Below are positions 433-16,593 of a stretch of 45,332 nt of DNA, in pieces. The translations under genes were made by a program, and so were the position numbers. Source of the DNA: a virus (Duplodnaviria > Heunggongvirae > Uroviricota > Caudoviricetes); IMG/VR virus record IMGVR_UViG_3300005688_000042, one strand, 5' to 3'. The number at the start of each line of letters is the position of its first letter. The stretch's first letter is position 1. The notes beneath the pieces were generated by a model, which worked only from the letters and a program-made list of their open reading frames with translations, made no database searches and had not been told where the DNA came from.

Positions 433-527
433 GGTTCTGTAGTTTAACGGTAGAACACTCACCTTATAAGTGAGCATAGCCGCCAGATTAGCGGACAGTG
501 AAGGTTCGAATCCTTCCAGAACCACCA
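433..527 (+). tRNA. tRNA-Ile(UAU) with a 25-nt variable arm
   Basis: GGTTCTG/CAGAACC acceptor, CTCAC-CTTATAA-GTGAG anticodon arm, variable region 475-499 with CCGC/GCGG stem, TTCGAAT, A73, CCA. Confidence 0.88.
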
Positions 528-7784: not shown

Positions 7785-8635
7785 CTTGAATGCCTGAGAT
7801 TATAGCATATCGTTGGTTGCCTTTCAAGTGATTATCCAATCGGTGCTTAATCGACAGGTTCCACTTTTATCCACTTCCTCAAGGAAGTATCAACCATAGC
7901 GGCCTTTTTATACTAGAGGCAATTCTAGTGTCACTATAACCTATTCCAAGTTCTGTCTACCGCCTACTTTGCGAGCAGTGCAGGGTGCTACCCCTTACGT
8001 GCAACTTTCCTTGAACAACATATCGCCTTGCGAGCTTTACGTTGACTCAATTCACCGAAGTGTTGAGTATTACGCTACTTTCAGTTACAGTCGGTGACAA
8101 CTTTGCGTTTTAGTGTGGAATCGAACCACTGCGTTTTGTATAAGGCAAAACATCTAACCAATAGATAAAGTCTAACCTCCTAAGATGCGTGTCACCGTGA
8201 CTCCATATAACTTTATTATACGGAATACCACACACGTCCTTTCATCCGCTAAGATTACTCGTACTAGTGTATACCTTTGTGTGTCTAACCGATGAAGGCT
8301 AGTCCCACAACCTTATACCCTTTGTATGCGCCCTCGTCCGCTAAGACTCAAACCTCATACCTTGGCATTCAACATCTGTTCTAGACATGTTTGCGTGTGA
8401 TAGAATCTTGCGGATTCTTAGCTGAAGCTACACCGTTGGCCTCGCCAGCTATTGTCTCACCATGTTGTAAAACTTATACGAGTTTTCATCCTCGTCCTAC
8501 CATTTCTGGTAGTGTATTGTGCCATTGTTTAGATGGGCCATTTCTGGTGGCTGACTAGGGAGGCTGTCAACCTTTGAGCACCTTGCGATACTCTTTCCGA
8601 TCACCGATTCATTTCTTCCTCGGAGTGCTAAACCA
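7785..8635 (-). ncRNA. GOLLD-like giant structured RNA (~850 nt)
   Basis: ORF-free; many GNRA-capped hairpins; long-range helix TTGAATGCC (8372-8364) with GGCATTCAA (7794-7786); 3' end AATCTCAGGC; lies in a tRNA cluster and holds a tRNA-like insert, as known for GOLLD. Confidence 0.72.
8107..8177 (-). pseudogene. degenerate tRNA-like insert inside the giant RNA
   Basis: D-arm ATCT-ATTGGTT-AGAT, TTTTG-CCTTATA-CAAAA hairpin, GTGG-TTCGATT-CCAC T-arm, broken acceptor stem, no CCA. Confidence 0.65.
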
Positions 8636-15854: not shown

Positions 15855-15920
15855 GGATCGATTCAGCTACTGTTCAGGTAACTGGTGTATAATCATTCAT
15901 ACCAACCAAGGACAAACGCG

Positions 15921-16445
15921 ATGACCATCGAATCTGATCTGCGCGCTGCTTTCAATCGTCACATGGACAATGCTTGCCGTCTTTACCCCGCATTCACTGC
16001 AAACCGTCATCGCGTGGTGTTTGAGATTGTGCCAAACATGGGTGGGATCGCCGGTCAAGCACGTGGCTGTTTGCATATCAAGGTGAATCTTACCCTTGCG
16101 CGTCAAAATCCTGACTACATCTGTAACAATACCATCCCCCATGAAATCGCGCATATCATCTGTGCACACTTCGGTTGGGATCGTGGCCATGGCAAGAATT
16201 GGAAACGTGTAGCGGTGTCGCTCGGTTGCACTGGTGAACGATGCTTCAATGCTGCTGAAACTGGTATGACTCCGGTTAAGCTTCGCCAGCGAAATCGCTA
16301 TGAATATGTTGCAAGTTGTGGTACAGTTGTCTGGCTGAGTGATGTGATGCACAATAAGGTGACGAATGGTCAGCAACGTATCCTCGCCAGCACCAAGGGT
16401 CGCATTTCCAAGCATCATTTCACTGGCAAGAGTAAGGTGGCATAA
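15921..16445 (+). CDS. SprT-like zinc metalloprotease
   Basis: 'IPHEIAH..C' HExxH, 'GHGKNWK', C-terminal 'YVASCG'. Confidence 0.85.
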   Translation: MTIESDLRAAFNRHMDNACRLYPAFTANRHRVVFEIVPNMGGIAGQARGCLHIKVNLTLARQNPDYICNNTIPHEIAHIICAHFGWDRGHGKNWKRVAVSLGCTGERCFNAAETGMTPVKLRQRNRYEYVASCGTVVWLSDVMHNKVTNGQQRILASTKGRISKHHFTGKSKVA

Positions 16446-16492
16446 ATAGTTGTTGCAAGCCACTATAGCATCTGCTATAGTGGCTACACACT

Positions 16493-16593
16493 GGGAGAGT
16501 GGCCAAGCGGTAAGGCAGCAGACTTTTTTAACACTTTTTCGAGAGTATTAAAAAATCTGTTCATCGTGGGTTCGAATCCCACCTCTCCCACCA
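16493..16593 (+). tRNA. tRNA-Lys(UUU)-like gene with a 26-nt hairpin inserted in the anticodon loop
   Basis: Intact acceptor (GGGAGAG/CTCTCCC), D- and T-arms, A73, CCA; stem GCAGA/TCTGT encloses 33 nt instead of 7. Confidence 0.8.

Follow-up and report, generated by a model that had tools for sequence, protein, structure and literature searches.

The DNA analyzed here, referred to as the window, is a 45,332-nucleotide (nt) stretch of a Caudoviricetes phage (IMG/VR record IMGVR_UViG_3300005688_000042); the phage record is complete at 306,759 bases, with terminal repeats and about 30 transfer RNA (tRNA) genes, and the sequencing runs that contain it, possibly those of the source sample, are from bioreactor sludge. 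Positions 16493-16593, on the plus strand, were confirmed by sequence comparison as a tRNA-Lys(UUU) gene that is split directly after the anticodon by a 26-nt hairpin, the whole gene measuring 101 nt, or 75 nt after removal of the insert. The 5' exon (16493-16527), aligned to an uninterrupted (empty) allele from a related locus, L071, comprises the 5' strand of the acceptor stem, the D arm, the 5' strand of the anticodon stem and loop bases C32 to U36. The insert (16528-16553, site 36/37) has a 10-base-pair (bp) stem with a C·A mismatch (16532/16547) and a UUCG loop (16538-16541), and its 2-nt 3' tail (16552-16553) pairs with U35-U36. The 3' exon (16554-16593) supplies A37-A38, the 3' strand of the anticodon stem, a short variable loop, the T arm, the 3' strand of the acceptor stem, A73 and an encoded CCA. 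A sigma70-type promoter-like site (16453-16481, +), made up of a -35 box, a 17-nt spacer and a -10 box, lies 11 nt before the tRNA.

Using the Rfam tRNA model, a score of 58.5 bits was obtained at 16493-16590, with 71/71 model positions matched and an insertion in the anticodon loop. A plain ARAGORN run missed the gene; when 16528-16553 was removed, a 75-nt tRNA-Lys(ttt) was reported, with a cloverleaf, UUU in a 7-nt loop, A73 and CCA. The predicted fold of the 101-nt RNA is a cloverleaf in which the anticodon helix is lengthened (-36.1 kcal/mol, z -4.6; 0 of 200 shuffles as stable), the extension consisting of a C32 bulge, 8 bp, the C·A mismatch, 5 bp and the UUCG loop. A sequence-only reading of the window had described intact acceptor, D and T arms and CCA, and had placed the same 26-nt boundaries within a tRNA-Lys(UUU); both descriptions hold, the latter also against the empty syntenic allele. 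The inner hairpin that it drew within the insert keeps its UUCG loop, but the fold gives 5 bp in place of the proposed 3-bp inner stem. The gene was also correctly placed away from the tRNA clusters, as the nearest other tRNA gene is 6.2 kb off. Its claim that the gene has its own promoter stands in part: the site scores 9/12, and a matching -35/-10 pair is found 9 to 13 nt upstream of the tRNA in eight syntenic loci, but such sites are not enriched regionally (5 found versus 5.1 expected). One public contig, which may be that of the source sample, contains the stretch without a break, and a second, independent contig from freshwater agrees with 16499-16593 apart from a single difference; thus, the arrangement is not an assembly artefact.

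Since the loop contains runs of U and A, deletion of 26 nt could yield a Lys, Leu, Phe or ochre suppressor tRNA; among 26-nt deletions, that of 16528-16553 alone gives a Lys loop. A Leu(UAA) identity with the insert at 34/35 was excluded by the ortholog L013, which has only three A residues before the stem, and both an ochre suppressor (35/36) and the Phe(AAA) called by ARAGORN were excluded by the empty allele. The syntenic slot was retrieved from relatives via the upstream SprT-like protein (gene at 15885-16445, +; used solely as a synteny marker for the tRNA-Lys slot, with no functional link shown), together with pattern scans, and exact-pattern and BLAST searches of viral contigs and cultured phages identified no close copy of the Lys gene. 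The slot holds an uninterrupted tRNA-Lys(UUU) with the same tRNA body in L071 and a different, long-armed but uninterrupted Lys(UUU) in L062 and L063; thus, the slot is one for Lys(UUU) and the insert site is 36/37. Versions with a 26-nt hairpin occupy it in L064, L065 and L068-L070, and a 33-nt version in L013. In the same slot, L067 (1805-2159) carries two odd tRNA genes, one of them Lys-like with a 71-nt three-hairpin insert at 34/35.

The exons of the filled allele L109 and the empty allele L071 are identical at 69/72 positions. A second hairpin gene in the genome of L013, L113, is in its spliced form 86/87 identical to an intact Lys paralog there, differing only at the wobble base. With the empty Arg(UCU) allele of Aeromonas phage phiAS5 (below), these three empty alleles fix the boundaries without any assumption about mechanism. 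Across the orthologs, four insert pairs have changed on both sides, the C·A mismatch has been repaired in two different ways, the loop stays UNCG in the 26-nt versions and a U·G pair near the top of the stem is invariant. The whole-gene compensatory-change values were reached by 0 of 500 shuffles, although this figure derives from six related rows and is not a probability. This is the pattern expected of selection on RNA; the sequence-only reading had asked whether homologs carry random, uncompensated insertions, and instead the hairpin has been kept through compensatory changes.

Pattern scans that left the insert itself unconstrained placed the element as one member of a recurring class, with single-hairpin inserts of 24 to 34 nt in genes for Trp, Arg(UCU), Ala, Thr, Gly and Lys(CUU) tRNAs in other phages. 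Outside the window, the same genome harbors a Trp gene (G000 C1 141158-141257, -) with a 28-nt hairpin of this class at 35/36 (11 bp, GNRA loop, 2-nt tail), and no other, intact Trp gene was detected in this phage. In cultured Aeromonas phages, an Arg(UCU) locus just after gene 57B (L387-L391) carries a 26-nt insert in PX29 and phiWae14 and a 28-nt insert in Aeh1 and Ah1, and is empty in phiAS5. RefSeq labels these Arg(UCU) genes tRNA-Lys or tRNA-Glu or leaves them unannotated, and no intact Arg(UCU) gene was found in Aeh1 or PX29 (also PMC1524935, Table 4). A 24-nt hairpin of this class was also seen in a Trp-like tRNA beside restriction-type defence genes in a Sulfurimonas metagenome-assembled genome (L219 930-1027, -), where it may be a phage relic. 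The matches listed from a loose GTDB scan were mostly archaeal 37/38 introns and tRNA fragments, which served as controls, with one bacterial case; they give no measure of the frequency of the class in cells. A covariance model of the hairpin tRNAs failed to separate them from plain tRNAs and was dropped. No description of this hairpin-insert class was found in the literature searched, whose coverage largely excludes subscription papers.

Not all inserts in anticodon loops belong to this class. Six single-hairpin inserts (L127, L135, L139, L142, L288 and L376), and also L001, fall outside the RNase III register described below and seem to represent other insert classes. Small anticodon-loop insert families outside that register (L131, L137, L141, L376 and L139), with a shared loop motif or ACA...AG ends, were also observed. 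A subclass at 34/35 in Leu, Ile2/Met and Asn genes (L001, L005, L010, L115, L300, L301 and L349) has 2 to 6 extra bases on the 5' side, with a G eleven bases before the 3' site in 6/7. Separately, an Asn-type gene of this genome (G000 C1 141017-141142, -; L112) has a 51-nt branched insert with a T-arm-like hairpin, of a tRNA-shaped intron class, and two more were identified in the related phage.

The geometry of the boundaries was examined in 16 inserts from seven isoacceptors at two sites (35/36 in Trp, 36/37 in the others). With boundaries that restore the anticodon, each insert opens, from its very first base, with a stem of 9 to 12 bp that encloses a loop, and it ends in two additional 3' bases; in 13/16 these two bases pair with the last two exon bases. 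In the register that leaves a 2-nt overhang, 138/144 positions are paired, compared with at most 81/144 in eight other registers. As this register holds at 35/36 in Trp and at 36/37 in the rest, the ruler is the hairpin and not the tRNA body. The boundaries of the Ala and Sulfurimonas inserts are ambiguous and were picked by geometry, so that both count for the determinant test only. The predicted cuts lie in a continuous helix with a 2-nt stagger and 3' overhangs; products with 2-nt 3' overhangs bearing 3'-OH and 5'-phosphate ends are the mark of RNase III (PMC3867540). On these sequences, the boundaries that restore the anticodon loop coincide with those expected of a staggered, RNase III-type cut.

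The minimal substrate of Escherichia coli RNase III yields a 28-nt product of 11 bp with a tetraloop and a 2-nt overhang; its proximal box comprises A-U or U-A at +1, A-U at +2, A-U or U-A at +3 and G-C at +4, and its distal box U-A and U·G, the U·G being stringently required (PMC1540722). The text of that paper gives no coordinates for the distal box and once calls it directly adjacent to the loop; the T7 R1.1 sequence, confirmed against T7 records, was used to place the box at +10/+9, the one position in that site with adjacent U-A and U·G pairs. A U·G pair was found at +9 in 15/16 inserts, compared with 1/141 at other positions, and U-A at +10 in 10/13. Position +3, the antideterminant position, is A-U or U-A in 15/16 and never G-C or C-G, +1 is A-U or U-A in 13/16, and +4 has a G in 10/16. 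In lineages found after the hypothesis had been set, the U·G was present in 5/6 (P of about 4e-4 at a generous 15% background), and the Aeh1, Ah1 and phiWae14 inserts retain it. Among the archaeal and eukaryote-type 37/38 introns listed as matches and used as controls, 1/16 had U·G at its own site. The inserts of Trp, Aeh1 and Ah1 are 28 nt, as is the published RNase III product, and most inserts are built as 11 bp + 4 + 2; stems are 11 to 12 bp in L013, two Trp inserts, Aeh1 and Ah1, and 9 bp in the 24-nt inserts. The ortholog L013 agrees with the consensus at six of six determinant positions. The present insert agrees at +1 and +3 and in its distal-box-like element (16536-16543, +), where U·G 16536/16543 and U-A 16537/16542 fall at +9 and +10 from the predicted 5' cut. 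An in vivo E. coli study found G to be preferred at the position contacted by H27, where it helps to set the 11-nt distance (PMC6212723). The sequence-only reading named no nuclease for the excision, and this RNase III signature is new here.

That reading had proposed a search of the genome for RNA ligase and splicing endonuclease genes. No RNase III, EndA, RtcB or Rnl1 was detectable in this phage, and two RNA ligases of the Rnl2 family (PF09414) were found. One of them is fractured (L119 4335-6427, corresponding to about 212.3-214.4 kb of G000 C1, -), with the halves of a split intein around a free-standing DUF7487 open reading frame (ORF). A PF09414 ligase gene of the phage lies at C1 216118-216621, and an intact homolog at G001 281563-282012. 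PDB searches gave no subfamily placement for the two ligases; a third PF09414 match is an NAD-dependent DNA ligase, and a fourth is 437 amino acids long. PF09414 is present in all six complete carriers larger than 200 kb. RtcB was found in 0/17 and in none of these six, and among the carriers an RNase III domain was found in the bacterial genome only. ATP-dependent phage ligases need 5'-phosphate and 3'-OH ends (PMC7824862). Genes for NAD salvage and for an HD protein lie in the same region as the fractured ligase, and a PNK-like kinase is encoded at a distance of about 6 kb. At L120 670-3449 (-), an NAD-dependent DNA ligase is divided between two separate ORFs, and a further ORF on the opposite strand lies between these.

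Taken together, we propose, with a probability of about 0.6, that host RNase III excises the hairpin and that a phage ligase rejoins the exons. The insert would be a minimal tRNA intron modelled on a product of RNase III cleavage. Before splicing, the anticodon would be zipped up in a helix of some 19 bp. The host enzyme would bind the hairpin via the proximal and distal boxes and cut both strands with a 2-nt stagger, after U36 and before A37, releasing the 26-nt hairpin and leaving 3'-OH and 5'-phosphate ends. The acceptor and anticodon stems would hold the exons while an ATP-dependent, Rnl2-family ligase of the phage joined them into the 75-nt tRNA-Lys(UUU). The sequences establish the identity of the gene, the insert site, the conservation of structure, the geometry of the cuts, the sequence determinants and the presence of ligase genes; that the RNA is expressed, cleaved by RNase III, ligated and used in decoding is what we infer. 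Of the two options raised by the sequence-only reading, the tiny protein-spliced intron is favored by the empty alleles, the compensatory changes and the recurrence of the class. A report of RNase III as a tRNA splicing endonuclease was not encountered in the literature searched.

Several observations weigh against this proposal. Intact Lys(UUU) genes coexist with the split gene in this genome and in two other carriers, so that splicing of the present copy is not needed. The present insert departs from the consensus at +2 and +4 and by its C·A mismatch, and its 10-bp stem with UUCG falls below the 11 bp of the minimal substrate; loss of one pair from that substrate lowers E. coli RNase III activity 50-fold (PMC1540722), although in the present RNA the helix continues past the cut. 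Its two pairs between the cuts are U-A, while in vivo sites prefer G-C (PMC6212723). The determinants applied are those of the E. coli enzyme and may not be those of this phage's host; the Aquifex RNase III ignores the distal box (PMC3074117), so the preference is not universal. An Arg insert (L346) lacks the U·G, inserts were assigned to the 'zipped' class by eye, and the hairpins may share ancestry, which would inflate the counts. The 34/35 subclass fits RNase III geometry at the 3' site only and would need trimming or a second cut. Finally, a PF09414 ligase is also present in phiAS5, the phage with the empty allele, and the PNK-like kinase could heal other ends; thus, the ligase set is compatible with RNase III ends but not specific for them.

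Among other explanations, it is conceivable, if rather unlikely, that the RNA is cut and never rejoined, or is left whole, and serves as a tRNA-shaped decoy, titrating RNase III, an anticodon nuclease or other defence proteins that bind tRNAs. The coexisting intact Lys(UUU) copies would suit such a role, as would the position of the gene, alone under a host-type promoter amid small early-type ORFs, and rRNA intervening sequences are removed by RNase III without rejoining (PMC8708148). However, a decoy gives no reason why both cuts should restore a 7-nt loop and the right anticodon in seven isoacceptors at two positions, a plain tRNA-Lys(UUU) occupies the same slot in L071, L062 and L063, and the Trp and Arg(UCU) carriers are without a detected intact copy. 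The sequence-only reading's other option, an uncleavable mimic or PrrC decoy, is less likely: the hairpin looks built for cutting by a double-stranded RNA nuclease and buries the loop that an anticodon nuclease targets, although the coexisting intact Lys(UUU) speaks for it. Splicing by a phage nuclease that has escaped recognition, or by another double-stranded RNA nuclease of the host with the same 2-nt stagger, is judged unlikely; here the U·G would be the mark of that enzyme or of the ligase. All the geometric evidence suits any dimeric nuclease with this stagger, most proteins adjoining the gene have no Pfam match, and in the 34/35 subclass a further activity is required at the 5' site. 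Against such an enzyme, several separate positions match RNase III (+1, +3, +4, +9 and +10), as does the product length, and the phage records yielded no domain of the RNase III family or of EndA.

The hairpin might also be a selfish or protective DNA insert that destroys the target of a homing endonuclease or integrase in the anticodon loop, hitchhiking in a dead tRNA. In L013, L062 and L111, the gene immediately after the Lys gene encodes an HNH or PD-(D/E)XK nuclease, L067 contains the beginning of the L111 ORF, and such a nuclease gene also follows the intact Lys copy of this genome (G000 C1 149844-149919, -), a gene with an unusual T loop. This is very unlikely as a full account: no nuclease gene follows the present copy, selection of an RNA type is seen (UNCG and GNRA loops, G·U pairs and compensatory changes), and the exons, CCA and promoter are intact while the neighboring protein drops to 56-63% identity. 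Breakage of the target of homing endonucleases beside Lys genes may be how the insert spread, since filled alleles would escape being cut, but would not account for the retention of RNA shape. A self-splicing remnant (a degenerate group I intron) or a neutral palindrome from template switching is hardly credible. Group I introns are known from site 36/37 of bacterial tRNAs, a terminal G is seen in some inserts, and an AT-rich inverted repeat could come from a replication error; yet 26 nt is too short for a group I core, the last base of the present insert is A, Rfam gave no intron or ribozyme match, and conservation with covariation opposes neutrality.

Compared with known systems, the insert as sequenced lacks the defining features of group I, bulge-helix-bulge, Lak-type and rRNA intervening-sequence elements. 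A group I intron has a P3-P7 core, a terminal G and a length above about 200 nt, none of which the 26-nt insert provides, and the 3-nt bulges around a 4-bp helix of the bulge-helix-bulge are absent, the helix being continuous through both sites. Archaeal and eukaryal introns, removed by EndA or TSEN with RtcB or Trl1, resemble the proposed system in being short, cut by protein and followed by exon ligation, but they lie at 37/38 and not 36/37 or 35/36, their ends carry a cyclic phosphate where 3'-OH and 5'-phosphate are predicted here, and no EndA or RtcB was detected. The T7 R1.1 site is alike in its hairpin of about 11 bp, tetraloop, 2-nt 3' overhang and 28-nt product, and in its U·G at +9, U-A at +10 and A-U-rich proximal box with G at +4; it differs in being an mRNA processing site whose flanks are not rejoined, whereas the present insert, with 10 bp, lies within an anticodon loop. 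Intervening sequences of 23S rRNA (PMC8708148) are likewise extra stems in a stable RNA, removed by RNase III as is proposed for the insert, but they are 100-200 nt long and leave the rRNA fragmented; here the element is 26 nt in a tRNA, and a tRNA with a break in its anticodon loop could decode only after ligation. A literature search for religation after their removal found nothing. The Lak megaphage introns (PMC6784885, Table S6) share short, non-ribozyme inserts in the anticodon loop, filled and empty alleles and an unexplained mechanism; these introns, at 79-114 nt, were overlooked in the earlier statement that bacterial tRNA introns are all long and self-splicing. The four that were read are about 79-114 nt with T-arm-like hairpins, in contrast to the single 24- to 34-nt hairpin with RNase III determinants of the present class, and the combination of a T-arm-like hairpin and an acceptor-like stem is not found in the 26-nt insert.

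For the ligation step, parallels exist elsewhere. T4 Pnkp and Rnl1 repair tRNA-Lys cut by PrrC, a case, as proposed here, of a phage ligase closing a broken Lys anticodon loop; T4 repair differs in mending damage and removing no insert, and Rnl1 was not detected in this phage. The kinetoplastid editosome pairs RNase III-domain nucleases with Rnl2-family ligases, the combination of activities proposed here, but is directed by guide RNAs and acts on mRNA. By analogy, the proposed system would resemble rRNA intervening sequences in excision and T4 tRNA repair in ligation.

Other RNAs were observed in this genome. Within the window, a GOLLD RNA match (198 bits; 7791-8238, -) lies inside a tRNA cluster, a tRNA-Ile(UAU) at 433-527 (+) has an extra variable-region hairpin whose loop shows GAU, and a tRNA-shaped RNA of about 146 nt at about 29175-29320 (-) has a T arm, an acceptor stem and an enlarged middle part. 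Elsewhere, G000 C1 carries an amber-suppressor-like tRNA (111535-111607), in a genome whose long ORFs end in TAG in 9/154, as well as a permuted transfer-messenger RNA (188755-189099) and repeated Y-RNA-like units (161100-161500).

To our knowledge, tRNA introns are removed either by self-splicing or by the archaeal/eukaryal endonuclease. If the proposal is true, it would add a third tRNA-splicing route, one that combines a nuclease universal in bacteria with a ligase of the phage: large phages would probably run a previously undescribed splicing pathway in which the host enzyme cuts and an Rnl2-family ligase seals, with the tRNAs maturing only in the infected cell. For one class of the unexplained tRNA inserts in phages, first brought up with the Lak phages, it would supply a mechanism, and for the Rnl2 ligases that jumbo phages commonly encode, a concrete substrate; the class would have been long present, mis-annotated, in the model phage Aeh1. 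The natural filled/empty pair in cultured phages (Aeh1, Ah1 and PX29 versus phiAS5) makes base-level predictions of the cuts testable. As a speculation, zipping could also protect the anticodon against anticodon nucleases until the phage has made its ligase. A portable hairpin of this kind, holding a tRNA in an inactive state for as long as no ligase is available, would in addition constitute a simple conditional switch.
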